The notes: a model not told the origin generated them from the sequence alone. A stretch of DNA of 38,374 nucleotides from Acidobacteriota bacterium (GCA_034666805.1 JAXDLD010000475.1:1-38374); one strand, 5' to 3'; positions 20,610 to 37,734 are shown, counted from the first letter of the stretch. A program made the numbers and translations.

Positions 20610-20633
20610 GCTTCAAGTCTGTTAGGTTGAATT

Positions 20634-20664
20634 CCGCCGGGGGAGACCCCGGCGGTTTTTTTTT
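20634..20664 (+). terminator. Rho-independent terminator after the receptor gene
   Basis: CCGCCGGGG-GAGA-CCCCGGCGG followed by a run of nine T, 25 nt after the TAA stop. Confidence 0.85.
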
Positions 20665-20806
20665 GCCCTCCGAAAAGGGGTAAACTCCTCCCGCGCCGTC
20701 CAGGCGCTGGTAAGGGAATCCCAGAGTACGAAGTCCGGTTGAAACGTCACGGAGCGCCCATCCTCCAGGATAGGGCGGTCTCTGCTCTAACCGAAGGAGA
20801 CTCACG

Positions 20807-21787
20807 ATGAAGATCCTGAAGAGAAATGCCGCCCTGGCAGCCGTTCTGCTCCTCGCCGGCCTCCCCGCCTTCGCGCAGTCGTGGGCGGGACACGGGCGGC
20901 TCCAGGGGATCGTCACCGATTCGCAGGGCAAGCCGGTCGAGGGCGCCAAGATCACCCTCCTCCAGGGCGAGGGCGAGCAGGCGAAGGGCCCCAAGCCGAT
21001 CGCGACCGACAAGGCGGGCAAGTGGGCCATGCTGGGCTTGGGCGGCGGCCAGTGGCGCATCCTGATCGACAAGGACGGCTTCGTCCCCTCGGAGGGCCGG
21101 ACCAGCGTCGTCGAGGGGGGCGTCGGGGTGCCGCAGCCGATCCGGGTATCGTTGAAGGAGCTCTCCAAGGAGCAGGCCCAGGCCGCCCAGGCCCAGGCGC
21201 AGGCGAAGGCCGGCCCGTCGGGCAATGAGATCAAAGGCTGGATCGAAGAGGGCAACAATCTGCTCAAGGAGCAGAAGTATGCCGACGCGAGGGCCCAGTA
21301 CCAGAAGGCGCTCGCCCAGCTCGACAAGGCCAACCAGGCACCGGTCCTGCGCGGCGTGGCGGTCACCTACTACGTGGAGAAGAACGTCGCGCAGGCGGTG
21401 GACACCTTGAAGCAGGCGCTGGTCTTGACCCCGGACGACCCGCAGTCGGTACAGCTCCTCGTCAACTGGCTGGTCGAGGCCGGGCGGGAGGAGGAGGCCA
21501 AGACCTACATGGCGAAGCTCCCGCAGGGGGCGACCGTCGATCCCAACACCATCCTGAACCTCGGGATCAAGGCCTACAACGAGAAGAAGCTGGACGAGGC
21601 GGCGAAGGACTTCGACCGGGTGGTCGCCGAGCATCCGGAGCTGCCGGACGCCTACTACTACCGCGGCCTGGTCTATCTCGCCAAGAACAAGCCGGCCCAG
21701 GCCAAGGCGGACTTCCAGAAGCTCCTGGAGCTCGCGCCGAACCACGCCAAAGCGGCGGAGGTCAAGGAGTACATCAAATCGCTGTAG
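20807..21787 (+). CDS. exported carboxypeptidase-regulatory-like domain + TPR repeat protein
   Basis: AAGGAG SD; signal peptide ...LLLAGLPAFAQS. GRLQGIVTDSQGKPVEGAKITLL...DKAGKWAMLGL..GQWRILIDKDGF. C-terminal TPRs (AYYYRGLVYLAKNKPAQAKADFQKLLELAPNH). Confidence 0.75.
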   Translation: MKILKRNAALAAVLLLAGLPAFAQSWAGHGRLQGIVTDSQGKPVEGAKITLLQGEGEQAKGPKPIATDKAGKWAMLGLGGGQWRILIDKDGFVPSEGRTSVVEGGVGVPQPIRVSLKELSKEQAQAAQAQAQAKAGPSGNEIKGWIEEGNNLLKEQKYADARAQYQKALAQLDKANQAPVLRGVAVTYYVEKNVAQAVDTLKQALVLTPDDPQSVQLLVNWLVEAGREEEAKTYMAKLPQGATVDPNTILNLGIKAYNEKKLDEAAKDFDRVVAEHPELPDAYYYRGLVYLAKNKPAQAKADFQKLLELAPNHAKAAEVKEYIKSL

Positions 21788-21789
21788 CC

Positions 21790-23973
21790 GTGGAGCTTCC
21801 CGCCGTGCGGCGCCCCCCCTACCTCCAGGCGGCCCTGGCCGCTCTCCTGATCCTCGGCGCGGGGGGCGCCGCCTGGTGGGCCCGAGGAGGGCCGGCGGCA
21901 TCGGCCCATCTCGCCGGAGCGGCCATCCCCGCCAAGGCGGGGCCGGCCCACCCCGGCCCCTTCCTCCAGGGGGCGGACGTCCTCCTCGTCACCATCGACA
22001 CTCTCCGCGCCGACAGCCTGGGATTCGCCGGCAACCGCCAGGTGGAGACGCCGGTCCTGGACCGCCTCGCCACCGCCGGCCGGGTGTTCACCGACGCCCA
22101 TGCCCACAACGTCATCACCCTCCCCTCGCACACCAACATCCTGACCGGCCTCTACCCGTTCCAGCACGGGGTGCGGGAGAACAGCGGCTTCACCCTCTCC
22201 CCCGCCGTGCCGACCCTGGCGACGATGCTCCACAAGGCGGGCTACGCCACCGGGGCCTTCGTCGGCGCCTATCCGCTGGATGCCCACTACGGCCTGAACC
22301 AGGGCTTCGACGTCTACGACGATCGTTTCCCGCGCGGCAGCAACCCGGACGAGTTCACCATCGCCGAGCGCCGGGGCAACGCCGTGGTGGCACCGGCCCT
22401 CGCCTGGTGGAACGCCCACCGCGGCCGCCGCCGCTTCCTCTGGGTCCACCTCTATGACCCCCACGCCGCCTACGAGCCGCCGGAGCCCTTCGCCAGCCGC
22501 TACCGCGACCGGCTCTACCTGGGCGAGATCGCCGCCGTGGACTCCTTCCTCTCCCCCCTCCTGACCCCGCTCCTCGATCACAAGGAGCCGCCGGCCCTGG
22601 TCATCATGACCGGCGACCATGGCGAGGCTTTAAGCGAGCACGGCGAGCTCTCCCACGGCCTCTTCGCCTACGAGGGGACGCTCAAGATCCCCCTGGTCGT
22701 CTGGGGGCCGGGGATCGAGCCGGGCCGGGACACCCGCGCCGCCCGCCATGTCGACATCGCGCCGACGATCTTGACCGCCCTGGGGGTCGCGCCGCCCGGG
22801 CGGCTCCCCGGCCGCTCTCTCCTCCTGCCGGCGACGCGGGAGGACTCCTACTTCGAGGCCCTGACGACGGCGCTCAACCGCGGCTGGGCGCCGCTCCGCG
22901 GGATGCTCCGCGACCGCCATAAGCTCGTCGACCTGCCGCTCCCGGAGCTCTACGACCTGAACGCCGATCCCAAGGAGGCGCACAACCTCTACGACCAGGA
23001 CCGGCCGGCCGCCCGCGCCCTCGCCCAGGCCCTGCCGGCGGAGTCGGTCTGGCCGCCGAAGAAGGGGACGGTGTCGGCCGAGGAGGAGGCCCGCCTGCGG
23101 AGCCTGGGCTACACCAGCGGCAGCGCGTCTGGCGGCAGGAAGACCTATACGGCGGCGGACGATCCCAAGACCCTGATCGCGGTCGACCAGAAGCTCCACG
23201 ACGTCGTCGACGCCTACTCGCGCCACCGCTATGAGCTGGCGGCGCGCCTGGCGCGCGCCTGCATCGCCGCCCGCCCCGACCTCTCGGAGGCCTACGAGCA
23301 CCTCGCCCTGTCTCTGCGCCAGCTCGAACGGCCGGAGGAGGCGATCCAGGCCCTCCGCGACGGGCTCGCCCACGGCGGCGACAAGCATTCCCTCTCCCTC
23401 CAGCTCGGCCTCGCCCTCTCCGAGGCCGGCCGGGCGAAGGAGGCCGTCGCGGTGCTCTCGCCGCTCGCCGCCCATGCCACCGATACCGGCAATACCGGCA
23501 CCGACTCGACCGAAACCCTGAATGCCTTAGGGATCGCACTCTCGGACGCCGGCCAGCATCCGCAGGCCCTGGCGACCCTCGAACGGGCCCGGAAGGCCGA
23601 GCCGGAGAACCCCAAGACCCTGGAGAACCTGGGGATCGTCCTCCTGCGCATGGAACGCCGCGACGCGGCGCGCGACCGCCTGCGCCAGGCGCTCGCCTTG
23701 AACGACCGGCTCCCCATCTCCTGGAACACCCTGGGGGTCGCCCTCTTTAAGGGGGGCGACCGCGCCGGTGCCGTCGCCGCCTGGCAGCGGGCGGTCGACC
23801 TCGATCCGCGGCAGGTGGACGCGCTCTACAACCTCGGCCTGGTGGCGGCGGAGTCCGGGCGCGCCGCCGAGGCGCGGACCGCCCTCGAGCGCTTCCTCCG
23901 CACCGCGCCCCCCGATCGCTGGACCGACGAGATGGCGAAGGCGCGCCAGGTCCTCGCCCACCTCGGGGGCTGA
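21790..23973 (+). CDS. alkaline-phosphatase-superfamily (sulfatase-like) hydrolase/transferase fused to TPR repeats, paralog 1 (membrane-anchored)
   Basis: GTG start 2 nt after the preceding stop. N-terminal TM helix. LLVTIDTLRADS, TLPSHTNILTGLYPFQHGVREN, TGDHGEALSEHGELSHG. TPR-rich C-terminal ~300 aa. Confidence 0.8.
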   Translation: MELPAVRRPPYLQAALAALLILGAGGAAWWARGGPAASAHLAGAAIPAKAGPAHPGPFLQGADVLLVTIDTLRADSLGFAGNRQVETPVLDRLATAGRVFTDAHAHNVITLPSHTNILTGLYPFQHGVRENSGFTLSPAVPTLATMLHKAGYATGAFVGAYPLDAHYGLNQGFDVYDDRFPRGSNPDEFTIAERRGNAVVAPALAWWNAHRGRRRFLWVHLYDPHAAYEPPEPFASRYRDRLYLGEIAAVDSFLSPLLTPLLDHKEPPALVIMTGDHGEALSEHGELSHGLFAYEGTLKIPLVVWGPGIEPGRDTRAARHVDIAPTILTALGVAPPGRLPGRSLLLPATREDSYFEALTTALNRGWAPLRGMLRDRHKLVDLPLPELYDLNADPKEAHNLYDQDRPAARALAQALPAESVWPPKKGTVSAEEEARLRSLGYTSGSASGGRKTYTAADDPKTLIAVDQKLHDVVDAYSRHRYELAARLARACIAARPDLSEAYEHLALSLRQLERPEEAIQALRDGLAHGGDKHSLSLQLGLALSEAGRAKEAVAVLSPLAAHATDTGNTGTDSTETLNALGIALSDAGQHPQALATLERARKAEPENPKTLENLGIVLLRMERRDAARDRLRQALALNDRLPISWNTLGVALFKGGDRAGAVAAWQRAVDLDPRQVDALYNLGLVAAESGRAAEARTALERFLRTAPPDRWTDEMAKARQVLAHLGG

Positions 23974-23975
23974 CG

Positions 23976-26297
23976 ATGGCGACGAACTGTACTTCCGAGC
24001 CGCTCGGGCGGAGGGGGGCGTTCCGCTCCACTCTCTTCACCCTCGTCGCCCTGGCGACCGTCCTCTCCGGCTGCCGGCACGCTCCGACCTACCCGGGAGC
24101 GCCGATCATCCTGATCTCGATCGACACCCTGCGCTCGGACCACCTGCCCGCCTACGGCTACGCCGGGGTGGAGACGCCGGCGATCGACGCTCTGCGCCGC
24201 GACGCCATCCTCTGCCAGCGGGCCTTCAGCCACTACCCCATGACGCTCCCCTCGCACGCCTCGATCCTCTCGGGGCTCCTCCCCACCCAGCACGGGGTGC
24301 GCGACAACGTGGGCTATCCCTTCGACTCCGAGCACCACAAGACCCTCGCCGGACTGCTCAAGGCCGCCGGATACGAGACCGGGGGAGCGGTCTCGACCTA
24401 CGTCCTCCGCCATTCGACCGGCATCGCCGCCGGCTTCGACTTCTACGAGGACTCGCTGGAGGTCCAGGGGGGCGAACGGCTCGACGAGGTGCAGCGGCCG
24501 GGCAGCGAGACCGCCCGGCTCGGTCTCGACTGGATCCGCGGCCGGATGTCAGAGAAATCGGGAAAGCCGTTCTTCTTCTTCCTCCACCTCTACGAGCCGC
24601 ACACCCCCTACAAGCCGCCGGAGCCCTGGAAGTCGCGCTACCGGGACCGCCCCTACGACGGCGAGATCGCCACCGCCGACGCAATCGTCGGCAACTTCCT
24701 CTCCGAGCTCAAGAAGCTGGGGGTCTACGATCGCGCCGCCGTCGTCCTGCTCTCGGACCACGGCGAGGGGTTGAACGACCACGGCGAGCGGCAGCACGGG
24801 ATCTTCCTCTATCGCGAGACCCTCCAGGTGCCGCTCCTCCTGAAGCTGCCGGGCAGCGAGCACAAGGGGGAGACGATCGCCGCTCCGGTCGAGCTGGCCG
24901 ACGTCGCCCCCACCCTCCTGGCGCTCGCCGGGGTCGCCCGGCCGCCCGAGATGACCGGCCTCCCCCTCTCGGACGTCCTCGGCGGCAAGGCGCCGACGCG
25001 GGAGATCTACTCCGAGACCTTCTATCCGCGCCTCCACCTCGGCTGGAGCGATCTCGCCTCCCTGATCGGCGAGCGCTATCACTACATCGACGGCCCGGAC
25101 CCGGAGCTCTACGACCTCCAACGCGACCATGGCGAGACGGCGAACCTGCGCGACCAGGAGCGCCGGACCTTCGCCGCGATGCGCGGCGACATCAAGCCCT
25201 ACGACCGCAACCTGGCGCCGCCGCACGCGGTCAAGGACCAGGAGACGATCCAGAAGCTCGCCTCGCTCGGCTATCTCGGCGGCTCTTCCGCCGTCACCCG
25301 CGGCACCCTCCCCGATCCCAAGAGCCAGCGCCAGGCCTTGGCCGGGCTCGAGGAGGCCTTCGAGCACGTCCAGGCGGGCGACGACGCCGCGGCGGCCCTG
25401 AGCTTCGAGCGCCTGGTGGCCGCCAACCCCAAGATGGCGGACGTCTGGGCCTTCCTCGCCTTCACCCTGCAGCGGCAGAAGCGGCATGAGGAGGCGAGCC
25501 GCGCCTTCGAGAAGGCGCTCTCGCTGTCGAACGGCACCCCGTCGCTCGCGGTCGCCGCCGCCGCCTCCCTGATCGCCCTGGGGAGGCTCGACGACGCCCG
25601 CGCCCACGCCGAGCTGGCGATGAAGGGGAACCCGGGCGGGGCCTACGACATCCTCGTCCAGGTGGCGCTCGCCCGCCACGACGAAAAAGGCGCGCTCGAC
25701 CTCATCAAGCGGGCGGTCGACTCCGGGGTGGCGAGCCCGGGCCTGCGCCAGCGCTACGTCCTCCTCCTCGCCGGCCAGGGCGATCCGCAGCAGGCGATCG
25801 CGGCCTTGAAGCCGCTCGCCGACCGCGGCGACCCGGAGGCGATCGGCGCCCTCGCCACCTCGCTCTCGGACACCGGGCGCAATCCGGAGGCGGAGGCGCT
25901 CCTGACCCAGCTCCTCACCCACCAGCCGGAAAACGCCCGGGCCCACGAGCTCCTGGGGATGGTGACTCTCCGCCTCGACCGCACGGCCGAGGCGCGCAAG
26001 GAGCTCGAACGCTCGCTCGCGCTCGACGGCAAGCGGGCCTCGGCCTGGAACACCCTCGGGGTCGCCCTCTACCGGCTGGAGGGTCCGGGGCCGGCCTTGA
26101 CCGCCTGGCAGAAGTCGGTGGCCTTGGACCCCACCCAATATGACGCGCTCCTGAACATCGGCCTGGTCGCCGCCCAGGCCGGGCGCCGGGCCGAGGCCTC
26201 CCGGGCCCTCCACCAGTTCCTCGCCACGGCGCCGGCCGACCGCTTCGCCGAGGATCGCCAGAAGGCTCGCGGCCTCCTGCGGGAGATCGGCGGATGA
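23976..26297 (+). CDS. sulfatase-like AP-superfamily + TPR fusion lipoprotein, paralog 2
   Basis: Lipobox LSGC. ILISIDTLRSDHLPAYGY, TLPSHASILSGLLPTQHGVRDN, LSDHGEGLNDHGERQHG. C-terminal TPRs. Start lies 2 nt after the paralog 1 stop. Confidence 0.85.
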   Translation: MATNCTSEPLGRRGAFRSTLFTLVALATVLSGCRHAPTYPGAPIILISIDTLRSDHLPAYGYAGVETPAIDALRRDAILCQRAFSHYPMTLPSHASILSGLLPTQHGVRDNVGYPFDSEHHKTLAGLLKAAGYETGGAVSTYVLRHSTGIAAGFDFYEDSLEVQGGERLDEVQRPGSETARLGLDWIRGRMSEKSGKPFFFFLHLYEPHTPYKPPEPWKSRYRDRPYDGEIATADAIVGNFLSELKKLGVYDRAAVVLLSDHGEGLNDHGERQHGIFLYRETLQVPLLLKLPGSEHKGETIAAPVELADVAPTLLALAGVARPPEMTGLPLSDVLGGKAPTREIYSETFYPRLHLGWSDLASLIGERYHYIDGPDPELYDLQRDHGETANLRDQERRTFAAMRGDIKPYDRNLAPPHAVKDQETIQKLASLGYLGGSSAVTRGTLPDPKSQRQALAGLEEAFEHVQAGDDAAAALSFERLVAANPKMADVWAFLAFTLQRQKRHEEASRAFEKALSLSNGTPSLAVAAAASLIALGRLDDARAHAELAMKGNPGGAYDILVQVALARHDEKGALDLIKRAVDSGVASPGLRQRYVLLLAGQGDPQQAIAALKPLADRGDPEAIGALATSLSDTGRNPEAEALLTQLLTHQPENARAHELLGMVTLRLDRTAEARKELERSLALDGKRASAWNTLGVALYRLEGPGPALTAWQKSVALDPTQYDALLNIGLVAAQAGRRAEASRALHQFLATAPADRFAEDRQKARGLLREIGG

Positions 26298-28468
26298 AGA
26301 AGCGCTTCCTTCTGCTTCTGCTCCTCCTGCCGGCCGCCGGCTGCGGCCCGCCTGATAAGGCGACAGGCCCCGTCGGCACCTTCCCCGGCGCCCCGATCGT
26401 CCTCATCTCGATCGACACCCTGCGTTCGGACCACCTGCCGGCCTACGGCTACAAGGGGGTCGAGACACCGGCCATCGACGCGCTGGCGAAGGACGCGATC
26501 CTCTACGAGCGGGCCTACAGTCACATCCCGCTCACCCTGCCCTCCCACGCCACGCTCTTGAGCGGCCTCCTGCCGGCCGAGAACGGAGTGCGGGACAACG
26601 TCGGCTACGTCTTGGACGCCAAGAAACACCCGCACCTGCCACGGACGTTGAAGGGGGTCGGCTACGCTACCGGGGCCGCGGTGTCGGCCTACGTCCTCCG
26701 CGCCGAGACCGGGATGTCTCAGGACTTCGATTTCTACGACAGCGCGATCGACGTCAAGACCTCCGAGGCCCTGGGGCGGAGCCAGCGGCCGGGCCGGGAG
26801 ACCGCGGAGATCGCCAAGCGCTGGCTGGGCGGCGTTGGCGGGGGCGCCGGCAAGCCCTTCTTCCTCTTCCTCCATCTCTACGAGCCGCACACGCCGTACG
26901 AGCCGCCCGAGCCCTTCGCCTCGCGCTACAAGCTGGCCTACGACGGCGAGATCGCCACCGCCGACGCGATCGTCGGCGACTTTCTCGCCGACTTGAAGCA
27001 GCGCGGGATCTACGACCGGGCGATCGTCCTCCTCCTCTCCGATCACGGCGAGGGCCTCTCGGAGCACGGCGAGCAGGAGCACGGGGTGTTCCTCTATCGT
27101 GAGGCGCTCCAGGTGCCGCTCCTCCTCAAGCTCCCGGGAGGCCGGCTGGGCGGCACCCGGGTCGCCGCCCCCGCCGAGCTGATCGACGTCTTCCCCACCC
27201 TCGCCCGGCTGGTCGGGGCGCCGGTGCCGCCGGAGCTCAAAGGCAGCTCGCTCCTCGACCTCCGCGATCCCAAAACCCCGGCGCGCCCGGTCTACGCCGA
27301 GACCTACTACCCCCGGCTCCACCTCGGCTGGAGCGAGCTCACCTCGCTCGTCCGCGACCGTTTCCACTACATCCGCGGCCCGCAGCCGGAGCTCTTCGAT
27401 CTCGGCGCCGACCCTGACGAGCGCAAAAACGTCCTCACGGCGGAGCGCCGCGCCTACGCCGCCCTCCGCCAGGAGCTGGCCGGCTACGAGCACCCCTTGA
27501 CCGCGCCCGCCGCGGCCGACGAGGAGACGGCGCGAAAGCTCGCCTCCCTCGGATACCTGGGAAGCTCGGCGGTGGATACGAAGGGGCCGCTCCCCGATCC
27601 CAAGGAGCGGATCGGCACCCTCAAGGACTTCGGCCTCGCCTTCCGCGAGTACGAGGCCCAGCGCTATGCCCAGGCGGTGCCGGCCTTCGAGCGGCTGGTG
27701 GCCGCCAACCCGCGGATGGTCGACGCCTGGGAGCACCTCGGGCTCACCCTCCAGAAGCTCGGCCGGCGGGAGGAGGCGCTCGCCGCCTTCCAGAAGGCCA
27801 TGGACCTCTCCGGCGGAGTGGCCCACGTCGCCCTCGCCACGGCGACGCTCCTGGTCGACATGGGCCGGCTCGACGAGGCGAAAAAGCACGCCGAGCTCGG
27901 TTTAGCCACCAGCCCGGCCTCGGCGCACAGCGTCCTCGCGCAGGTCGCCATGACCCGGAAGGACCTGCCCACGGCGGAGAAGGAGGCGCGCGCCGCCCTC
28001 GCCGCCAAGGGTTCGACCATCGGCCCGCTCCTCACTCTCGCCCAGGTGCTGATCGAGGAGGGGAAGCTCGACGAGGCCCTGGCCACCACCCAGCGGGGGG
28101 TCGACGATCTCGCCAAGCAATCGGGCAAGCAGCGCTTCGCCGGCCTCTTCTACGTCCGCGGCGACGTCCTCGCCCGGCTGGGCAGGAACCCGGAGGCCGA
28201 GCAGTGTTTCTTACGAGAGATCACGGATGCTCCGGGGGATACCAAGGCCTACACGCGGCTCTCGGTCCTCTACGCCAGCGAGGGGCGCTCGGCCGACGCC
28301 GTCGATACTCTGCGCCGGATGGTCGAGACCAACGAGTCCCCGGCCGCCTACGCCGAGGCGGTCAAGACGCTCCGGGTCCTGGGCGACCCGGGGGGCGCCC
28401 AGGCTCTCCTGCGGCACGCTCTCTCCGTCCATCCCGAGAGCCGCGAGTTGCGGGCGCTCGGGGGGTAG
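26294..28468 (+). CDS. sulfatase-like AP-superfamily + TPR fusion lipoprotein, paralog 3
   Basis: ATGA start/stop overlap with paralog 2. Lipobox AAGC. VLISIDTLRSDHLPAYGY, TLPSHATLLSGLLPAENGVRDN, LSDHGEGLSEHGEQEHG. C-terminal TPRs. Confidence 0.85.
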   Translation: MKKRFLLLLLLLPAAGCGPPDKATGPVGTFPGAPIVLISIDTLRSDHLPAYGYKGVETPAIDALAKDAILYERAYSHIPLTLPSHATLLSGLLPAENGVRDNVGYVLDAKKHPHLPRTLKGVGYATGAAVSAYVLRAETGMSQDFDFYDSAIDVKTSEALGRSQRPGRETAEIAKRWLGGVGGGAGKPFFLFLHLYEPHTPYEPPEPFASRYKLAYDGEIATADAIVGDFLADLKQRGIYDRAIVLLLSDHGEGLSEHGEQEHGVFLYREALQVPLLLKLPGGRLGGTRVAAPAELIDVFPTLARLVGAPVPPELKGSSLLDLRDPKTPARPVYAETYYPRLHLGWSELTSLVRDRFHYIRGPQPELFDLGADPDERKNVLTAERRAYAALRQELAGYEHPLTAPAAADEETARKLASLGYLGSSAVDTKGPLPDPKERIGTLKDFGLAFREYEAQRYAQAVPAFERLVAANPRMVDAWEHLGLTLQKLGRREEALAAFQKAMDLSGGVAHVALATATLLVDMGRLDEAKKHAELGLATSPASAHSVLAQVAMTRKDLPTAEKEARAALAAKGSTIGPLLTLAQVLIEEGKLDEALATTQRGVDDLAKQSGKQRFAGLFYVRGDVLARLGRNPEAEQCFLREITDAPGDTKAYTRLSVLYASEGRSADAVDTLRRMVETNESPAAYAEAVKTLRVLGDPGGAQALLRHALSVHPESRELRALGG

Positions 28469-28619
28469 AGCCGACGTCCGCAAACTCCGTTTCGACTTCC
28501 CCCGGTTCTGCTCCCGCTTCACAAACTTGGTGACTCTGTCCAGGAGCTGCGCTTCGCGGTCGCCGGACTTAAGAGCAAAGTCAGGAGGCAACGTCTTCGA
28601 GATGTGGACTCTGGCTCCG

Positions 28620-29240
28620 GTGCCGCACCGTCGATGTCGAGGACCGGGACCGAGATGTCGAGCCCCTGGACTGAGACTCAGAGTTCCTGGACGTAATACC
28701 CGTGGTCCGGGACGTAGAGTCTCCGTCCCCTCGCCACGGTTGGACTCCAGGGTTTAAGACCGCCGTCCCGGTGCCGCGATCTCAAGTCCCGGTACTGCGA
28801 CCCCAAGTCGCGGGCCGGAGACTCAGCGCCCCACAACCAAGACCGCGATCCCGGGACCCCGACCCTCGGCCGGGGGACGGCAATTCGTCGTCCGGGTCTC
28901 GCGACGTCAAGTCCCGGGACCATGACCCAGAGCCGCGGGATGGCGGCCTTTCTCCCTGGCGGAGGACCGGAGTCCCGGGGCCATGAACCCAAGTCCCGGT
29001 GCTCTGTCTTCGAGTCCCGATGCCGAGACCCGCAATAACGGCAGCCCAAGCTTTGTCTAGGTCTCGGTCGTCAAGTCTCGGTACCGAGAGCCGAGCTAGC
29101 GGTCACCAGACGCGTTGTCTGGGGCCTCTGTCCTTGAGTCGCGGTACCGAGACCTGCGATGGCGTGCCGAAGGCACTTGTCCGGGTCTCTGTCTTCAAGT
29201 CTCGGGACCGAGACCCGTGATATTGGCACCCGGAAGCGTT
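28620..29240. repeat. degenerate tandem array R2 (~620 bp): ~21-nt sub-units, ~63-nt super-unit, near-palindromic core GTCTCGGTACCGAGAC
   Basis: Core copies at 28786, 28807, 28911, 28972, 29014, 29075, 29138 and 29199; the last four are spaced 61-63 nt apart. Intervening sub-units are also conserved (TTGTCYGGGNCTCTGTC; GNGATNGCGNNCACC). Lies between two convergent stop codons. Confidence 0.8.
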
Positions 29241-29260
29241 GCCCGGGGACGGAGGCCTCC

Positions 29261-29294
29261 CGCTCGAAACCTTCGAGCGCGAGAAACCCTCGCG
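29261..29294 (-). terminator. two adjacent short hairpins immediately after the ASPIC/UnbV gene stop (possible terminator, no U-tract)
   Basis: CGCTCGAA-ACC-TTCGAGCG (29261..29279) and CGCGAG-AAACC-CTCGCG (29278..29294). Confidence 0.3.
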
Positions 29295-29295
29295 T

Positions 29296-31290
29296 CTACT
29301 TCCCCGCCTCCGTGACCTCCAGCTGCCGGTTGCCGGCGATGGGGCCGGGGAGGGTCTGCTTCTTCCCCGACGGCCAGAGAATTTCGATCGAGTCGGCTTT
29401 CTCGGCATCGCCGAGGCCGAAGTAGAGCGGGATCAGGCTGTGCGACAGGTAGCCCGAGTTGCCGTCCATCGCCTTGGTCAGGGTCCGCCCCCCCACCTGC
29501 ACCTTGACCACGGCGCCTATCCCGTCCCGGTTCGACGCCTTGCCGGTCAGCCGGACCTTCAGCCAGTGGATCTTCTTCTTCTGGGCAAGGTCGCTGATGA
29601 AGACCTGGGGCTCGGAGTTGAATTCGTTGGTGACGATGTCCAGGTCGCCGTCGTTGTCGAGGTCGAAGATCGCCGAGGAGCGGGAGCCGAGGGTGCCGGT
29701 GACCGTGTACTTGCCCTCCTTGCCCTTGCACTGGGCGAGGGCCCGGTCCTCGCCCGAGCAGTCGAGGGTGAACCAGGGCTTGCGGGTCCGGCCGCCCCGG
29801 CGCGGCTCGACACCTAAGATGAAGGAGCTGTCCATGAAACGCTCTCCCTGGTTGTTGAGGAGCAGCGAGTTGACCCCGTAGCGGAAGGGGTAGTTCATGC
29901 TGGCGGTGATGAGGACGTCCTCCCAGCCGTCGGCGTTCAAGTCGCCCGTGCTCACCCCCCAGGGCCAGTAGTTCTCCAGGTTCAGGTCGAACGACCGCTC
30001 GGCGAAATGGCCGCCGCCCTGGTTCTCGAAGAAGGCGTTGCCGAAGACGTTGTTGGCGATCCCCTGGAAGACGGGCGCGTCCTCCTTGGGCGGAAACTTG
30101 GCCTTCTCGTCCGGGGGCGGGATGTCGCCGATCATGTCCGAGTGCATGTCGGTGATGAGGAGGTCCATCCGGCCGTCGTTGTTGTAGTCGAAGACCTTGA
30201 TCCCCATCGCCCCCCAGGGGGTCTTGGGGAAGTACTTCGCCGTCGCGTCGACGAAGCTCTTGCCGCCGACGTTCTCGTAATAGTGGTTGTCCCCCTGCAT
30301 GTTGAGGACGTAGAGGTCCGGCCAGCCGTCGCCGTTCCAGTCGGCGATCGAGGCGTCGCCGCTCCACGAGCCGTCTTCGAGCTTCATCGCCTTCGAGACG
30401 TCGGCGAAACGGTGGTGCCCGAGGTTGCGGTAGAGGACGCTCGTCTCCGTGCGCTCGGGGAAGAGGTGGCCGTGGAAGGCATCTTCGTAGGCCACGTAGT
30501 AGCCGCCCTTGCCGCGCGCCTCGGTCGTGTACTTGCCGACGTTGACCAAGAAGAGGTCGAGGAGGCCGTCGCGGTCGTAATCGAAGAAGACCGCGGCCGA
30601 GGAGTGGCCGACGTAGCCTAAGCCTGACTCCTGGGTGATGTCCTTGAAGTGCCCCTTGCCGTCGTTCTCGAAAAGGACGTTGCCGCCGCGGACGGTGGTG
30701 ACGTAGAGGTCCGGATCGCCGTCGTTGTCGACGTCGGCGAAGGTGGCGGAGACCGAGATGCGGCCCGGAACTCCCACCCCGGCCTCGGCGGTCATGTTCC
30801 TGAACTTGCCGTCGCCCAGGTTCTTCCACAGCTCGTTGCCGCCCAGCTGGTTGACGAAGTAGAGGTCGAGCCGCCCGTCGCCGTCGACGTCCGCCACCGC
30901 CAGGCCGGTGCCGTGGTCGTAGTGGGCCGCCTTGTAGCGCTTCCCCGCGTCCTCGACGATGCCGTGGACGAAGGTGATGCCGCTCTCGGGCAGCCGGTCG
31001 GCGAACTGGAAACCGTGGAAAACCTTGAACTGGTCGACCGTCGCCTTCTCGGCGGCGGCACGGGCGGCCAGGGTGTCGGCGCCGACGTCGGGGCTCGGGA
31101 CGTCGATCACCGCCGGGCCGCCGCCCGGGGCGGGGTTGGCCGCCGGGAGGGCGAGGGCGGCGGGAACGGCGTGGTCATGGGCGGCCGCGAGCCCCAGGGG
31201 GCCGGGAGCCGCCGCCGCCAGCAGCAGGAGCGGCAGGAAGAGCCAGGGGCGCGGGGAGGACCGGCGGCGGGACGGGAGCGAGTCTGGCAT
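29296..31290 (-). CDS. FG-GAP/VCBS repeat protein with C-terminal ASPIC/UnbV domain (CRTAC1-family)
   Basis: Start at internal Met MPDSLPSRRRSSPRPWLFLPLLLLAAAAP (signal peptide); the track start 31488 would run into the divergent gene. Repeated DxDGDGxxD(L/V) FG-GAP motifs (DVDGDGRLDLY, DVDNDGDPDLY, DYDRDGLLDL, DWNGDGWPDLY, DYNNDGRMDLL, DLNADGWEDV, DLDNDGDLDIV). UnbV-like tail NRDGIGAVVKVQVGGRT...GNSGYLSHSLIPLYFGLG...IEILWPSG. Confidence 0.85.
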   Translation of the reverse strand: MPDSLPSRRRSSPRPWLFLPLLLLAAAAPGPLGLAAAHDHAVPAALALPAANPAPGGGPAVIDVPSPDVGADTLAARAAAEKATVDQFKVFHGFQFADRLPESGITFVHGIVEDAGKRYKAAHYDHGTGLAVADVDGDGRLDLYFVNQLGGNELWKNLGDGKFRNMTAEAGVGVPGRISVSATFADVDNDGDPDLYVTTVRGGNVLFENDGKGHFKDITQESGLGYVGHSSAAVFFDYDRDGLLDLFLVNVGKYTTEARGKGGYYVAYEDAFHGHLFPERTETSVLYRNLGHHRFADVSKAMKLEDGSWSGDASIADWNGDGWPDLYVLNMQGDNHYYENVGGKSFVDATAKYFPKTPWGAMGIKVFDYNNDGRMDLLITDMHSDMIGDIPPPDEKAKFPPKEDAPVFQGIANNVFGNAFFENQGGGHFAERSFDLNLENYWPWGVSTGDLNADGWEDVLITASMNYPFRYGVNSLLLNNQGERFMDSSFILGVEPRRGGRTRKPWFTLDCSGEDRALAQCKGKEGKYTVTGTLGSRSSAIFDLDNDGDLDIVTNEFNSEPQVFISDLAQKKKIHWLKVRLTGKASNRDGIGAVVKVQVGGRTLTKAMDGNSGYLSHSLIPLYFGLGDAEKADSIEILWPSGKKQTLPGPIAGNRQLEVTEAGK

Positions 31291-31472
31291 GGGGACCCTC
31301 TGCGGAGCAGGCTTGAAGCGTCCGGCAGGATAGCATAAGCCTCCGCAACGCCCCCCGTGTCGCCCGCCGGTGTCCTTTTCAAGAAGCGAGCTGTCGATCC
31401 GAGCTACAAACTGCCGGGTTTGATGCGAAGCTGCTTTGAAGATACTGCGCGATGCGCTAGACTCCCACCACC

Positions 31473-32000
31473 ATGGATGAAGACTCACGGCAGGAACAGG
31501 AGGAAGTGGCGCGAGCGATCAAGCTCATCGAAGGCGTCATGCGGGTGCAGGGGGTGACCAAGAAGATCCTCGACGAGCGGCTGGGCAAGTCCCCCGGCTA
31601 CTTCGCGCAGGTGCTCTCCGGCCGCCTGGAGCTCAAGTACCGGCACATCCTCGCCATCCTGCGCGGGCTGGACCTGGAGCCGCGCGTCTTCTTCCGCTCG
31701 CTTTTCCCGGAGCCGGGGGAGCCCGTCTCCGGCGCCCGCATGCTGGAGCGGCTCTTCGCCGAGCTCCAGCGGAGCGGCTACGGCACCTACCTCTCCCCGC
31801 CGCCGTCCCTTTCGCCCCTCTCTCCGCCGGCAGTGCCGGCCTTCGCGCCCTCGCCGGCGGCCTCCCTGCCGGCGATCGACGCCGACGACCTCGACCGCCG
31901 CATCCAGGCCGCGGTCGCCGCGGCCCTGGCGGCGCGCGACGCGCGGGGTGAGCGCGAGGGCCAGCGCGTCGAAGCCGTCGAAGCCGGCTCGACCCGCTAG
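31473..32000 (+). CDS. XRE-like helix-turn-helix protein with Pro/Ala-rich C-terminal half
   Basis: GVTKKILDERLGKSPGYFAQVLSGRLELKYRHILAILRGL resembles an HTH_3-type motif. Divergent from the ASPIC/UnbV gene. Confidence 0.5.
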   Translation: MDEDSRQEQEEVARAIKLIEGVMRVQGVTKKILDERLGKSPGYFAQVLSGRLELKYRHILAILRGLDLEPRVFFRSLFPEPGEPVSGARMLERLFAELQRSGYGTYLSPPPSLSPLSPPAVPAFAPSPAASLPAIDADDLDRRIQAAVAAALAARDARGEREGQRVEAVEAGSTR

Positions 32001-32026
32001 AAGAAGCTGGCCTAGAAGAAGCTGGC
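31997..32026. repeat. perfect 15-bp tandem duplication CTAGAAGAAGCTGGC x2 spanning two convergent stop codons
   Basis: Copy 1 contains the TAG of the HTH gene (31998..32000). Copy 2 contains the stop (32012..32014) and the last codons (ASFF) of the kinase gene. Confidence 0.9.
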
Positions 32027-33553
32027 GATGACCCGGAGCAGGGCGTCCGGTTCGGTGGGCTTCGTCAGGTGCAGGTCGAAACCGGCCTCGCTCGCCAGCC
32101 GCCGGTCCTCGGCCTGGCCGTAGCCGGTCAAGGCGATCAGCCGGGTGAAGGAGAGCTCGGAGTCGCTCCGCAGGGCCCGCGCCACCTGGTAACCGTCCAT
32201 CTCCCCCGGCAGGCCGATGTCGCAGAGCACCACCTCCGGCTGGGTGTCGTGGGCCCGGGCGATCCCCGTCGGGCCGTCATGGGCGACCGTCACCTCATGG
32301 CCGGTGAGCTCCAGGAAGAGGCGCAGGCTCTCCGCGGCGTCGACGTTGTCCTCGACGATCAGGATGCGGTGCGGCCGCGGACCGGAGACGGCCGGACGGG
32401 GGACGATCTCCTCGCGCATCGGCGCCAGCGGCAGGCGGAGGGTGAAGATCGAGCCCTGCCCCGGTCCGTCGCTCGCCGCCTCGATCGTGCCGCCGTGCAT
32501 CTCGACGAGCGACTTGACGAGCGCGAGCCCCAGCCCCAGCCCGGAGCCGCCGCGCGCCGCGTCCTCGCCCTGGCTGAAGGGCTCGAAGATGCGCGGCAGG
32601 AGCTCCCGGGGGATGCCGATCCCGGTATCGCGGACGGTCAGGGTCGCCATCCCGCCCCCCTCGTCTCCCGGCTCTCCCGGCAGGACATCCAGGGCGACCG
32701 CGATCTCCCCGCCCGCCTCGGTGAAGGCGCAGGCGTTCTCCAGCAGGTTGGCGAACGCCTGGGCCAGGCGCAGGCGGTCGCCCAGGGTCCACAGCGGCCG
32801 CTCCGGGAGGGCGACGGCGAGCCGGAGGTCGCGGTCCTCCAGGCGGTCGCCCAAGGCGTAGACGGCCCCGCGCACGAGGTCGGTCAGGTCCAGGCGCTCC
32901 CGCTGCAGGGCCACCTTGCCGCTCGACAGCCGCGAGACGTCCAGGAGGTCGTCGATCAGCCGGGTGAGCTGGAAGACCTGGCGCTCGGTGAGCTCGCGGA
33001 GCCGCTCGCGCTGCTCCTCGCTGACGTTGGGCAGGCGGGCGATGTGGAGCGAGTTGACGATCGGGGCGAGCGGGTTGCGCAGGTCGTGGGCGAGGTCGGC
33101 GAGGAACTCCTCCCGCGAACGTCCGCCCGCCCGCTCGCCGCCCGTACCGCCGCCGCCGCCCTGGGTGTCCTCCTCGACCCGGTGCAGGATGTAGGCGACC
33201 TCCCCCTCTTCGCCGTAGACCGGCGCGTTGACGAGGCGGATGGGGCCGGACCACAGCCCCTGGCCCGTCCGCCCCAGGCCGTAGCCGCGCAGACGGAGGG
33301 TGTCGGCCCGGCGGCTCTCGAGCACCCGGGCGAGCGAGGCCCGGAGCTCGCGGCCGAAGTCCTCCGTCCCCCCGGCGGCGAGGAGCTCGGGCAGGCCGCG
33401 GCCGACGATCTCGCCGCGCTCGGTCCCGGTGGCGCGAAGGTAGGCGTCGCTCGCCGCCACCACCGTCAGGTCCGGCGCCAGGGCCAGGTAGGGGTCGGGG
33501 GCCGACTCGAAGAGGGCGCGAAAGTCAGGGGTCGGGGTAGGCACGGGGCGCAT
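32012..33553 (-). CDS. hybrid sensor histidine kinase (PAS - HisKA - HATPase_c - receiver)
   Basis: Only the C-terminal 513 codons of track ORF 32012..35236 look genuine, starting MRPVPTPTPDFRALFESAPDPYLAL (PAS). H-box FLADLAHDLRNPL; N-box NLLENACAF; G-boxes VRDTGIGIP and GSGLGLGLALVKSLVEMHGG. Receiver ILIVEDNVD...VVLCDIGLPGEMDG...LTGY...HLTKP. Confidence 0.85.
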   Translation of the reverse strand: MRPVPTPTPDFRALFESAPDPYLALAPDLTVVAASDAYLRATGTERGEIVGRGLPELLAAGGTEDFGRELRASLARVLESRRADTLRLRGYGLGRTGQGLWSGPIRLVNAPVYGEEGEVAYILHRVEEDTQGGGGGTGGERAGGRSREEFLADLAHDLRNPLAPIVNSLHIARLPNVSEEQRERLRELTERQVFQLTRLIDDLLDVSRLSSGKVALQRERLDLTDLVRGAVYALGDRLEDRDLRLAVALPERPLWTLGDRLRLAQAFANLLENACAFTEAGGEIAVALDVLPGEPGDEGGGMATLTVRDTGIGIPRELLPRIFEPFSQGEDAARGGSGLGLGLALVKSLVEMHGGTIEAASDGPGQGSIFTLRLPLAPMREEIVPRPAVSGPRPHRILIVEDNVDAAESLRLFLELTGHEVTVAHDGPTGIARAHDTQPEVVLCDIGLPGEMDGYQVARALRSDSELSFTRLIALTGYGQAEDRRLASEAGFDLHLTKPTEPDALLRVIASFF

Positions 33554-33622
33554 TGTATCCAAACCCGTATAATGGGAAGAGTCATAGACCCCCGGTTGTT
33601 CCGCCGGCTGAGGAAGATCCGC

Positions 33623-35302
33623 ATGAAAAAACTTCTCGCTCTCGCAGTCCTCGGCCTCGGCATCGCCTCCGGCGCGGCCCGAGCGGACGTCCAGCCCGCG
33701 CATCCCGCGCTCCCCCCGGTCGCCCCCAAGGCCGCCGCCCCCAAGGCCGCCGCTCCGGGGCCGGCCAGCCCGATCCAGAAGAAGCTGGAGGAGGCCTTGA
33801 ACCGGATGGACAAGAACGACGACGCCGGAGCCATCCAGATCCTCGAGGCCCTGAAAAAAGACCCCGACGTCACCCCGCCCGTCCTCGCCCTCCTGGGCGC
33901 GCTCTACTTGAAGACCAACCGGCCGAAGGAGGCGATGGCGATCCTGAAGCCGCTCGCCGACGCCGCCGACGCCGACCCGGCGGTGCTCTTCAACGCCGGG
34001 CGGGCGGCCTTCGCCCTCGGCCAGGGCCCCGAGGGCGAGCACTACCTCGGGCGCTCGGTCGCGCTGGCTCCGGGCTCGCCGGCCGCCCGCACCCTGGGCC
34101 TCCTGCTCGCCCGCCAGGGTCGATCGGTGGCCGCCTTCGACGTCCTCATTCCCTGGGTGCAGGCCAATCCCACCGACTTCGAGGCCCGGCTCGCCACCGC
34201 CCTCCTGGCCGCCAACCTGCAGCGTCTGGCCGATGCCGAGGAGCTGCTCAAGGATCTGCCGGCCAACAACCCGAAGGTCCGGCTGCTCAAGGGCGACCTC
34301 GCCCTCCGCAAGGGGGACGCCAAGGCCGCCATCGCGACCCTCCGGCCGCTCGTCGACAGCCCGCCGCCGGGTTTCGACACCAGCGGCGGGATGCAGCTCG
34401 ACGCCCGCCGGCTCCTGGCCGACGCCTACCTGCGGACCGGGCAGTCCACCGAGGCGGTCAAGCTCCTCGCCGGCAAGGGGGGTGACGCCCCCACCGCCCT
34501 GCTCCTTGCCCGGGCCCAGTACCAGAGCGGCAATCTCCAGGCCGGGCTCGCCACCCTCACGCCCTACGCCCCCAAGATCCTGAAGGCGGGCCAGCCGCGC
34601 GACCCCGACCTCGTCGCCGAGATGGCGCTCGCCTACGGGCGGATGCTCGCCGCCGCCAACCGGCAGCCGGAGGCGGCGAGCGCCTTGGCCGTCGCCACCC
34701 GCCTGGACCCCGACAGCACGGAGGCCTGGCAGGCCTACGGGCAGACCCTGACCGCCCTCGGCAAGAAGGACGAGGCCGGCAAGGCCCTCGCCCGCTTCCG
34801 CGACCTCTCCGCCGCCCGCACGAAAGCCAAGGCCCCGGCGGCGCCGGCCGTCGACCCGGTGGTCGCCCTGATGGAGAAGGGCGAGCTCGACAAAGCCGTC
34901 GCCGCGGCCCGTGAGCAGATCAAGGCGACGCCCAAGGACCTCGGCCCGCGGGCCCTGGAGGTGCGCATCCTGCTCCTCCAGAAGCATCCCGACGAGGCCC
35001 TGAAGGCCGCCCAGCGGATGGTCGACCTCGCCCCCGGCAGCCCGGACGCGATCTATGCCCGCGGGGTCTGCCAGCTCGCCCTCCAGAAGGCCAAGGAGGC
35101 GGAGGCGGACTTCCGGCAGGCCCTGAAGCTCCAGCCCCAGTACCTGCCGGCCATGAACGACTTGGCGGTGCTGCTCATGCTGCAGGGCCAGAAGGCGGAG
35201 GCGAGGACCCTGCTCCAGAAGGTGCTCAAGGCGCACCCCGACGACAAGCTGGCGGCCGAGAACCTGAAGAAGCTCGACACCGAGGGCAAGGCGGGCGGGT
35301 GA
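33623..35302 (+). CDS. exported TPR-repeat protein
   Basis: Genuine part of track ORF 32069..35302. GAGGAAG SD; signal peptide MKKLLALAVLGLGIASGAARA. Multiple TPR-like helical repeats (...AWQAYGQTLTALGKKDEAGKALARF..., AIYARGVCQLALQKAKEAEADFRQALKLQPQY). Confidence 0.75.
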   Translation: MKKLLALAVLGLGIASGAARADVQPAHPALPPVAPKAAAPKAAAPGPASPIQKKLEEALNRMDKNDDAGAIQILEALKKDPDVTPPVLALLGALYLKTNRPKEAMAILKPLADAADADPAVLFNAGRAAFALGQGPEGEHYLGRSVALAPGSPAARTLGLLLARQGRSVAAFDVLIPWVQANPTDFEARLATALLAANLQRLADAEELLKDLPANNPKVRLLKGDLALRKGDAKAAIATLRPLVDSPPPGFDTSGGMQLDARRLLADAYLRTGQSTEAVKLLAGKGGDAPTALLLARAQYQSGNLQAGLATLTPYAPKILKAGQPRDPDLVAEMALAYGRMLAAANRQPEAASALAVATRLDPDSTEAWQAYGQTLTALGKKDEAGKALARFRDLSAARTKAKAPAAPAVDPVVALMEKGELDKAVAAAREQIKATPKDLGPRALEVRILLLQKHPDEALKAAQRMVDLAPGSPDAIYARGVCQLALQKAKEAEADFRQALKLQPQYLPAMNDLAVLLMLQGQKAEARTLLQKVLKAHPDDKLAAENLKKLDTEGKAGG

Positions 35303-37047
35303 GGGCGGGTCGACTCCTCCTCGCCGTCACCCTGCTCGTAGCGGCGGCCGGCGCCGCCCGCCCGGCGACTCCGGCGGCTCCGGCGGCAGGCGAGGACCCG
35401 CTGGCGGCGCTCGCCACCCGGCTGGGCGAGGCCGGCCCCGATCTCCTCCCCCGGCTCCAGGCCGACCTGGGCGCCGCCGCCGCCGCCCGCGCCCGCCGGC
35501 TCGCCGCCCAGGGGGAAGCCGCCTGGACCGACCGCGAGATCGCCGATCTCCTCCGCCTCTCGCTCCTCGACCCGCCCCGCTTCGTCGACGACCCCGCCTT
35601 CCGGGAGCGGGCCCTGGGAGTTCTCGCGCAGTCCCTCGACCGGCAGGCGCCGGCCGCCCTCCGCGACCGCCTGCTCGACCAGCTCGGCGGCTTTCCGGGC
35701 TTCGACTTCGCCGCCGGAGAGCGGGTGGGCTGGGCCTGGGGAGCCCTGCCGCGGCGGAGCTCCGAGCGCCAGATCGACACCCCCGCGCTCGCCGGCCCTC
35801 CCCTCCGTTTCGACGCCGACGACGGCGGGGACGGCCGCTCGCTCGCCGCCTCCGTCTACTCGCTCCCCTCGGCCTTCTTCGACGCCGGGACGGCGGCGGC
35901 CTTCCTCGCCGGGGTGCGGGCTGTGGACCCGGAGCGGCGGATCGTCGTCCTCGCCGATCTCGCCCAGGTCCGGGCCCTGGCCGACCGGGGGCGCGCCCTG
36001 CACGCCGACCTCCTCCTGAACCACGGCCGCTCCTACTCGCCCTGGCCGCGCGACCCGTTCAGCCTCGTCCATAGGGGGGAGGGCCGGAGCGGCCGGGTGG
36101 TGGTCCTCGTGCGGCCGAACCTCCAGCCCGGGCGGGAGGAGGACGCGAGCCTCGGCCCGGAGCTGGTGCAGGACCTCCCCCCGGCCCTGGACGCCGCCTG
36201 GGGGGAGCCCCGCTGGGCCCGCGCGCCGGTGCCCTTCCACAACGGCCAGGTGCTGCTCACGGCGGGCGCCGCCTGGATCACGCTCCATACCCTGGAGCCG
36301 CGTATCCTCGCCCTCCTCGGGGAGAGCCGGGTGCCGGTCGCGAGCTTCGCCACCGCGGCGGGGATCGCCCGTTATCTCGACGCGGCCCGCCGCGCCACCT
36401 CGGAGCTCGCCGACCTCTACGGCCGCTCGGTCCGCTTCGTCCATCCTCTCCCCACCGCCGGCTCGGCCCTCGTGACGACCCTCGGGGGCGGCGCCGGCTA
36501 CGATCTCGACTCGCTCGTCACCCTGCTTCCCCCCCGCGCTCCGGGAGGCAAGCCGCAGGCGCTCGTCGCCGACGTAGCGGCCGGCCGCGCCCTCCTCGCC
36601 CGGCTCCCAGCCGCCGACTGGCAGGCGCTCGCCGCGGGCTACGGCCTCCAGGCGGAAGGCCTGGCACCGGCGATGACCGCCGCCCAGCGCGCGCCGCGGC
36701 CGGAGGCCCTGGCCCCGTACCTCGACCTCATCGCCATCCACTTGAAGAGCCTGGGATTCGCCGTCGACCGCCTGCCCCTCCTCTTCGTGCCGGTCCCTCT
36801 CCTGCGGGACACCGGGGGCCTCGACTACCCCGATTTCCTCCTCACCTGGAACAACGTGGTCGTGGAGAAGCGGGCCGGGAAGGTGCGGGCGGAGGGGTTT
36901 GCTTCCCTCCTGCCGGCCGGCGACGCCATCGCGCGGGAGGTTTTCGTCCGCGCCGGGGTCCACCTCGACCTCCTGCCGCCACTGGTCCAGAGCGTCGTGC
37001 GGAACGGCGGCTACCGCTGCGCCTCGAACCACCTGCGCAACGGTTAG
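35299..37047 (+). CDS. exported protein with guanidino-group-modifying (pentein; agmatine/peptidyl-arginine deiminase-like) features
   Basis: GTGA start/stop overlap with the TPR gene; signal peptide MRAGRLLLAVTLLVAAAGAA. Motifs reminiscent of the deiminase fold: SPWPRDPF, PFHNGQVL, LTWNNVVV, and C-terminal NGGYRCASNH (GGxxxC catalytic-Cys-like). The family call is tentative. Confidence 0.5.
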   Translation: MRAGRLLLAVTLLVAAAGAARPATPAAPAAGEDPLAALATRLGEAGPDLLPRLQADLGAAAAARARRLAAQGEAAWTDREIADLLRLSLLDPPRFVDDPAFRERALGVLAQSLDRQAPAALRDRLLDQLGGFPGFDFAAGERVGWAWGALPRRSSERQIDTPALAGPPLRFDADDGGDGRSLAASVYSLPSAFFDAGTAAAFLAGVRAVDPERRIVVLADLAQVRALADRGRALHADLLLNHGRSYSPWPRDPFSLVHRGEGRSGRVVVLVRPNLQPGREEDASLGPELVQDLPPALDAAWGEPRWARAPVPFHNGQVLLTAGAAWITLHTLEPRILALLGESRVPVASFATAAGIARYLDAARRATSELADLYGRSVRFVHPLPTAGSALVTTLGGGAGYDLDSLVTLLPPRAPGGKPQALVADVAAGRALLARLPAADWQALAAGYGLQAEGLAPAMTAAQRAPRPEALAPYLDLIAIHLKSLGFAVDRLPLLFVPVPLLRDTGGLDYPDFLLTWNNVVVEKRAGKVRAEGFASLLPAGDAIAREVFVRAGVHLDLLPPLVQSVVRNGGYRCASNHLRNG

Positions 37048-37256
37048 AGCGCGGCAGGATCGGAATCGTTTGTACAGGGGAGGAGCAGGGGGGAGGACAG
37101 GAGGGGGGTGGCATCGCGAAGCTTCCTACCGCTTCCTGCCGCGCAGGCTCCTAGCTAGCAACCATAGGTAATGGGTTCGTCCACACAGAATTTGGGACAG
37201 GAGACGTCGGTGCTCTCGACCTGTACCGGCGCCGCACCCAGCCGTGCGGCTGTGGG

Positions 37257-37288
37257 GCGCTCCGCTCCTCGGCCGAGGAGCGGAGCGC
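37257..37288 (-). terminator. perfect 32-nt palindrome (16-bp arms) about 20 nt downstream of precursor gene A
   Basis: GCGCTCCGCTCCTCGG|CCGAGGAGCGGAGCGC read directly from the sequence. No U-tract, so it could be a terminator, an RNA-stabilising hairpin or a protein-binding palindrome. Confidence 0.45.
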
Positions 37289-37308
37289 AGGCCTTCCGTG
37301 AGTAACTC

Positions 37309-37683: not shown

Positions 37684-37734
37684 GGGTCCTGTCCCAACAG
37701 TCTGTTGGTGGTACAGGGGCGTAAGTTGAGGGAA

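Follow-up and report, generated by a model that had tools for sequence, protein, structure and literature searches.

An unusual repeat architecture in the spacer between two convergent genes of an acidobacterial contig

What fills the 827-nt spacer between two convergent genes of an acidobacterial contig, how old is it, and does it do anything for its neighbours? The window, by which we mean the whole 38,374-nt stretch of DNA that was analysed, is a contig of 69% GC from JGI metagenome 3300044813, and, judged by the source names of its proteins' homologues, it belongs to the Thermoanaerobaculia (Acidobacteriota). Higher-order, satellite-like repeat architecture is regarded as a eukaryotic trait, and to our knowledge 800 bp of non-coding repeat is rarely kept by bacterial genomes. 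The spacer holds a repeat architecture, here called R2, that is real and unusual among extragenic palindromic and tandem repeats; it is an interesting oddity with no demonstrated function. We give a probability of roughly 0.55 to the reading that R2 is an old, degenerate, non-coding, satellite-like tandem array, carried as an accessory block and having at most a passive activity at the 3′ ends of the adjoining genes.

Extent, periodicity and palindromes of the array

The convergent stop codons lie at 28468 and 29296, and re-derivation of these coordinates gave the same 827-nt gap (28469–29295) as the first-pass annotation. On the left the spacer is bordered by the gene for a 724-aa sulfatase and TPR protein (26294–28468, plus strand), the last of three tandem paralogues, and on the right by the gene for a 664-aa FG-GAP/ASPIC protein of the CRTAC1 family (29296–31290, minus strand). 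The tRNA-Ser that ARAGORN called at 25229–25315 is probably spurious, since a sulfatase gene encloses it. The array had been confined to 28620–29240; in fact it spans the entire spacer, from 28484 to 29281, as judged by the extent of a G/C wave with a period of 62/9 = 6.89 nt and a phase that is steady within ~0.5 nt.

Three parts of R2 differ in preservation. The left part (28484–28762) is the most decayed and retains a faint similarity of units with the heads GGACTC/CCGGGAC, and despite this decay both the 6.9-nt wave and the 21-nt lag are still present there. The middle block (28763–29052, plus strand) consists of 21-nt units with the consensus RAGTCCCGGKACCGAGACCY, whose A-type copies start at 28763, 28784, 28805, 28846, 28909, 28930, 28970, 28991 and 29012, and which form higher-order repeats at offsets of 62 and 124–125 nt. 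The three best-kept super-units, each 61–63 nt long, occupy 29053–29114, 29115–29176 and 29177–29238 on the plus strand, and each consists of the sub-units C (an arm), A (the palindrome) and B (a linker), with the head-to-tail order maintained throughout. These units recognised one another in nhmmer with E values of 3e-11 to 4e-10, all as direct repeats. A separate hairpin with 12-nt arms (CTCCCGCTCGAA/TTCGAGCGCGAG) and a 3-nt loop lies at 29257–29283 on the minus strand, 13 nt downstream of the FG-GAP stop codon, and is not followed by a U-tract.

The periodicity was evaluated on the 827-nt spacer (28469–29295) against 1000 dinucleotide-preserving shuffles. Identity at lag 21 was 0.413 compared to 0.272 in the shuffles (z 9.2), lags 62, 103 and 124 gave z values of 5.9, 8.2 and 9.3, respectively, and none of the 1000 shuffles matched the observed values. 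Thus, the repeat period reported at first pass withstood a formal autocorrelation test. The excess of lag-21 identity over lags 18 and 24 was 0.208 in R2, compared to a mean of 0.011 and a maximum of 0.128 in 827-nt windows over the rest of the contig, where the maximum was reached at another array, R1. The strongest signal in R2, which went unnoticed at first pass, was a wave of 6.88–6.9 nt, with a spectral power of 23–29, and of 29.2 at 6.88 nt, compared to ~3 for the next peak at ~20.8 nt; in each period C is abundant in the first half and G in the second. The wave amplitude exceeded the 99th percentile of the contig in nearly all 84-nt windows between 28484 and 29281 at constant phase, and such a phase-locked wave was found in the R2 spacer and nowhere else in the contig. 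R2 is therefore organised as a hierarchy of 6.9, 20.7, 62 and 124 nt. The ~21-nt sub-unit described earlier stands as a lag; it is not the dominant period, and the exact lattice is 20.67 nt (62/3) rather than 21.

TRF recovered short 21-nt stretches alone, at 28633–28676 and 28765–28817, because the copies of R2 are so diverged, and a gap-free repeat finder returned families of direct repeats spaced by 21, 61–63, 82–83, 104 and 124 nt. A position-weight scan found 16 A-type 21-mers, every one of them within 1 nt of the 20.67-nt lattice.

The palindromic cores were found where they had been described, at 29014, 29075, 29138 and 29199 with spacings of 61, 63 and 61 nt, together with the more diverged copies further left at 28786, 28807, 28911 and 28972. 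With up to three mismatches allowed, the 16-nt palindrome matched six times in the window compared to 0.43 matches expected, and five of the six lay inside R2. The cores had been called perfect or near-perfect; no copy is perfect, and the three best (GTCTCGGTACCGAGAG at 29075–29090, GTCGCGGTACCGAGAC at 29138–29153 and GTCTCGGGACCGAGAC at 29199–29214) each agree with the palindrome at 15 of 16 positions, with a single mismatch. The C arm and the right arm of A are complementary over a 12-nt stretch (92%). This right arm decays, and the palindrome is not kept in the older units. Across the 16 units, 67% of palindrome cells were paired compared to 65.5% in shuffles, 116 of 500 shuffles scored as high, and compensatory changes showed no excess. 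The hairpin or dimer-site character of R2 is inherited and decaying, not maintained.

R2 is non-coding. All frames had been reported open, which proved wrong, as each forward frame contains 3–5 stops, no ORF exceeds 123 aa and GC content shows no dependence on codon position, in a window whose genes have a GC3 of ~0.9. Neither an intrinsic terminator (a GC-rich hairpin with a U-tract) on either strand of 28300–29500, nor a σ70 promoter consensus or a G-quadruplex motif in the spacer, was found. R2 has no paralogous DNA elsewhere in the window and no similarity to plasmids or phages, and a search of viral contigs gave two matches, both irrelevant.

Presence and age of the block among relatives

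The closest sequenced relative, locus L002, encodes an FG-GAP protein with 97% amino-acid identity to that of the window and is collinear with positions 18503–38374 of the window at 93–95% nucleotide identity. In L002 the same two stop codons are separated by 23 nt and there is no array. In a more distant relative (L003, amino-acid identity 84%) the spacer measures 105 nt and contains a single long hairpin in place of an array; other genes follow FG-GAP in L004/5, L006/7, L159 and L160, other genes follow the sulfatase block in L166, and none of these loci carries the array. R2 is present in L162 and L163, two short contigs that are independent assemblies of sibling samples and represent one further strain, which rules out an assembly artefact. 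Their spacer is 826 nt long compared to 827 nt in the window and differs at 16 of 828 positions (1.9%), comprising 13 substitutions and two small indels, 2 nt being deleted in one and 1 nt inserted in the other; these two lie at the right edge of the spacer and outside the 6.9-nt wave. The comparison of array length among strains thus yielded nearly equal lengths in the two carriers and a 23-nt spacer without array in L002. R2 is an accessory block of ~800 bp that one Thermoanaerobaculia lineage has and its closest sequenced relative does not. At the borders of the indel, inspection by eye revealed no terminal inverted repeats or target-site duplication, and ~8 nt on the right side alone align with L002.

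The repeat units of R2 differ from one another by 24–38%, the most similar pairs being 62–76% identical, whereas third-codon divergence from the window is 7–9% to L002 and 5–8% to the sibling strain. The last amplification is therefore older than both splits, and this comparison of divergences dates R2 to before the lineage parted from L002. Either L002 lost the block or the block was imported pre-formed, with no recent growth in place.

The flanks of R2 have histories of their own. Among the window, L002 and L163, the sulfatase flank shows L002 as the outgroup (30 unique sites compared to 7 and 10), whereas roughly equal distances separate the three in the FG-GAP flank (7, 15 and 20 unique sites), and within the compared stretch 27469–30280 a burst of 29 differences falls at 29200–29599. 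The flanks are recombination mosaics, with breakpoints probably at the junction, and the varied neighbour genes in the relatives mark this junction as a hotspot of neighbour exchange. Two other places also differ from L002. A second indel at 37052–37208 leaves 157 nt in the window compared to 7 nt in L002, and a sibling-strain contig (L165) differs there too. The intergenic region 20610–20806, between an outer-membrane-barrel gene and a TPR gene, shares just 77% identity with L002 in an alignment that has 30 gap columns, a variability well beyond that of the other intergenic regions examined.

Origin of R2 and alternative explanations

In the reading that we favour, R2 would have arisen by hierarchical amplification of a self-complementary GC-rich motif, from a heptad of ~6.9 nt to the 20.7-nt unit RAGTCCCGGKACCGAGACCY and on to 62 and 124 nt, through slippage or unequal exchange, and would have arrived or survived at this locus as a pre-formed block. 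Mycobacterial intergenic minisatellites of the MIRU type (VNTR loci) are head-to-tail repeats of ~40–100 bp whose copies are mutually similar and whose copy number varies between strains. R2 shares with them the intergenic head-to-tail tandem arrangement, in both cases probably a product of slippage or unequal exchange. It differs from them in its 24–38% unit divergence, in its equal length in both carrier strains and in its complete absence from L002; copy-number variation of the VNTR kind was not observed, as no unit-length indel separates 827 from 826 nt and L002 is all-or-none. A CRISPR array was also considered and ruled out, since the B linkers are themselves repeated and the window contains no cas domains.

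As to function, R2 would form a common 3′ untranslated region of both genes, predicted to fold into many stable hairpins on either strand. By analogy with the REP clusters of E. coli, these hairpins could impede exonucleases and convergent read-through. Such a passive effect at the 3′ ends would be dispensable, because L002 copes with a 23-nt spacer.

A phased platform for protein binding is an unlikely alternative, and the phase of the wave is what speaks for it. A dimeric or filament-forming protein would occupy the palindromic cores or the heptads on a helix-locked lattice, in which 62 bp make 6 turns at 10.33 bp, 20.7 bp make 2 turns and successive heptads lie 240 degrees apart, giving a centromere-like or nucleoid-organising nucleoprotein array. 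In agreement with such a lattice, the phase of the 6.89-nt wave holds within ~0.5 nt over 800 nt, 16 of 16 A-type units fall on it, and the direct tandem units have 16-nt near-palindromes as their cores. When the decay of a perfect 62-nt array was simulated, the spectral power retained was 23 ± 2.4 without indels and 8–16 at indel/substitution ratios of 0.03–0.15, compared to the 29 observed in R2. Simple neutral decay in these simulations thus leaves a looser phase lock than R2 has, which hints at constraint on the periodicity, to a degree that depends on the assumed ancestor. The coherence could reflect selection on periodicity, and it could also reflect a purer heptad ancestor combined with mostly unit-length slippage, through which phase can persist without selection. 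The two indels between strains both spared the wave, and divergence between strains, at 1.9% overall and 0.5% in the central tract 28662–29214, is lower than the third-codon divergence of 5–8% (Fisher p ~1e-6). Conservation in this strain pair is, however, as high or higher in other intergenic regions (0/182 and 1/42 differences), and the flanks are recombination mosaics, so low divergence was dropped as proof of constraint.

Several observations weigh against the platform. At the R2 locus L002 and every other relative lack the array, the right arm of the palindrome decays without covariation, and R2 has no spectral peak at 10.3–10.5 nt. In sopC, the centromere of plasmid F, 12 direct repeats of 43 bp each contain a 16-bp inverted repeat to which SopB binds; heptad arrays are the targets of the omega repressor of pSM19035. 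In R2, too, direct tandem units carry a 16-bp palindrome and a 7-bp sub-period is strictly phased; the tandem 16-bp inverted repeat is found for three units of R2. R2 differs in being chromosomal and placed between metabolic genes, in its degenerate units, in its length of ~800 bp and in not being kept in L002. No partition or regulator gene lies nearby, and the window holds no parA/parB-type gene, which leaves R2 outside the sopC-like class. The platform, raised at first pass as an alternative, is thereby weakened, with the phase lock over 800 nt as the sole feature still in its favour. Should that lock reflect constraint, it would indicate a DNA-binding system not known so far, or else a new class of mobile repeats, in a phylum that has received little study; should R2 be neutral, it would be a dated case of such DNA persisting, gained or lost at a module junction in the Acidobacteriota.

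The first-pass annotation preferred a REP/BIME-like palindrome cluster, and part of this description holds, as R2 is a decayed extragenic array of hairpin-forming palindromic units between convergent genes. REP/BIME elements, known from Enterobacteria and Pseudomonas, have palindromes of 20–40 nt and are usually present in more than 100 copies per genome, dispersed in extragenic DNA. R2 resembles them (for example E. coli REP325, of the BIME-2 type) in its GC-rich imperfect palindromes able to form a stem-loop, in its place at 3′ ends between convergent genes, in its strain-variable presence, which differs even between close strains, and in the transcript-end or stabiliser action that might be expected of it. 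A preprint describes REP clusters as dual terminator/stabiliser 3′UTR elements in E. coli and as strain-variable and linked with higher expression of convergent gene pairs (bioRxiv 10.64898/2026.03.23.713779). That R2 is a canonical cluster of a RAYT-mobilised family scattered through the rest of the genome is, however, improbable on the grounds of orientation and tags, and of the lack of a transposase and of dispersed copies in the DNA sampled. REP dimers are mainly head-to-head or tail-to-tail, with head-to-tail rare, and carry an unpaired conserved GTAG or CGTC tag at one end (PMC3733652). All 62-nt super-units and 21-nt units of R2 are strictly head-to-tail direct repeats on the plus strand, with none of the alternating orientation of REP/BIME. 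The consensus GTAG/CGTC tag is absent from the R2 units; CGTC directly precedes two of the 16 (at 28905 and 29068), and the others are preceded by CTTC, CCTT, TCTC or CCCC. No RAYT/Y1 or other transposase was found among the window ORFs scanned against Pfam. Dispersed single copies of the core were likewise absent from the other 37.5 kb of the window, and 126 kb from relatives held one chance-level match (L002, 15859), ~164 kb having been sampled in total. The heptad-based hierarchy of 6.9, 20.7, 62 and 124 nt is also unlike that of BIMEs.

A long structured non-coding RNA, or a regulatory 3′UTR selected for its fold, appears still less probable. Folding z-scores in the spacer are strongly negative (−6.0 and −6.6 on the plus strand, −3.5 and −8.5 on the minus strand), minimum-free-energy folds of R2 are rich in hairpins on both strands, and the central 550 nt are little diverged between strains. 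Yet the two strands fold equally well, as expected of palindromic DNA repeats, and neither covariation nor a promoter consensus accompanies the fold. A search of R2 against Rfam 15 returned nothing at the gathering threshold, the sub-threshold matches being generic miRNA-hairpin models at 18–24 bits compared to thresholds of 57–80 bits. The multi-hairpin RNA proposed at first pass is thus weakened by the missing covariation, by the lack of an Rfam match and by the absence of the array from L002. Finally, the remnant of a heptad-repeat protein gene, suggested by the ~21-nt period and by periodic-looking translations such as KSRDRDP and KSRDHDP, is hardly credible, as a 20.67-nt lattice that is no multiple of 3 and super-units of 61–63 nt cannot keep a frame, every frame has stops, the GC3 profile is that of non-coding DNA and the concatenated six-frame translation of R2 matched none of 5.8 billion proteins.

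Candidate related arrays and other features of the window

A scan of GTDB species-representative genomes with a loose R2-derived pattern returned 38 loci, three of them in Thermoanaerobaculia MAGs; in pattern scans of genome and metagenome contigs most matches were chance, in unrelated satellites. Two contigs of one MAG (DATAHG01), L032 and L044, carry near-identical 62-nt arrays with the core AAAGTCCCGGGACT (L032 5344–5738; L044 182–393), and a 62-nt array with the same core occupies positions 140–770 of the metagenome contig L089. The units of these arrays are 89–91% identical, and the L089 array is related to those of L032 and L044 at E 2e-14. The L032 array ends in a predicted terminal foldback with a stem of ~24 bp, and L044 has the same terminal sequence. 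The three arrays have the look of a dispersed, possibly mobile repeat element.

R2 shares with these arrays the 62-nt period, sub-repeats of roughly 21 nt and the core RAGTCCCGGKAC, and with L089 the dominant 6.9-nt wave as well. L089 was the best foreign match of an HMM of R2 units (E 0.007 over 35 nt, covering two cores 21 nt apart), came top for the 6.9-nt wave among 151 loci selected by pattern, and has its array, on a reading of the sequence, apparently between convergent genes. On the other hand, R2 is not alignable with the three arrays outside the core, and they are young and end in a long foldback. Reverse HMM searches against the window were not significant (best E 1.8 for the L032/L044 units and 0.76 for the L089 units), and the direct alignment of R2 with L032 was restricted to a 12-mer core. 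Direct homology of R2 to the L032/L044 arrays was rejected as not significant by both alignment and HMM. R2 is probably a member of a loose family of 62-nt arrays with palindromic cores at other loci of related genomes; the link is borderline, and we grade it as probable rather than shown because the loci were selected with an R2-derived pattern and part of the likeness arises by construction. It is doubtful, if conceivable, that R2, L089 and L032/L044 make up an undescribed acidobacterial class of helix-locked (62 bp = 6 turns) foldback or tandem ‘satellites’ that scaffold protein or move without RAYT; in the scaffold version, a cooperative DNA-binding protein would serve a segrosome- or nucleoid-organising role.

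Other repeats were seen as well. A 38/75-nt tandem array (GGCAGAAGTCCCGGCTCGTCGAGGAGCTCGGGATGACA) occupies positions 4522–5020 of L034, which comes from a different Thermoanaerobaculia MAG, and inverted copies of GTCATCCCGAGCGAAGCGAGGGATCCC flank this array. Within the window, the R1 array (2249–2437, in the intergenic region 2016–2687) has a 21/63-nt unit, GCCAGGCGAACCTTTCCCGAT, an apparent flip of orientation near 2400–2420 and spectral peaks at 20.9, 10.4 and 7.0 nt. The R3 arrays at 37580–37680 and 38043–38240 follow a 21-nt lattice of 9-mers, which read GTGTCTCCA or, as the complement, GGAGACAC, and are conserved in L002; a 9-mer with 12-nt spacing resembles the sites of LytTR-type response regulators. 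They flank two genes for small Cys-rich peptides (37309–37455 and 37776–37934, both on the minus strand) with leaders of the form MKKK..KKLVL.KE, which look like RiPP precursors. A likeness of R2 to R3 had been noted; the GTCTC/GAGAC pentamer is indeed enriched in R2 (11 observed compared to 4.7 expected), whereas the R3 motif GTGTCTCCA/TGTCTC is not, and the link between the two was dropped for this reason.

Among the genes of the window, five consecutive large ORFs on the minus strand at 7005–17256 (740, 734, 733, 827 and ~375–390 aa) have a strong coding signal and no Pfam match, and L004 carries three similar-sized Pfam-less ORFs, with a fourth cut at the locus end, beside the same methyltransferase gene. 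Long ORFs on both strands of 32012–35302 are a high-GC artefact, the real genes there being a hybrid histidine kinase (32012–33553, minus strand) and a TPR gene (33596–35302, plus strand). An island of low GC3 at 3900–5600 contains genes of the toxin-antitoxin type, namely PemK/MazF (3957–4301, minus strand), an ABC/AAA_21 fragment (4506–4985, minus strand) and DUF4258 (5129–5560, plus strand).
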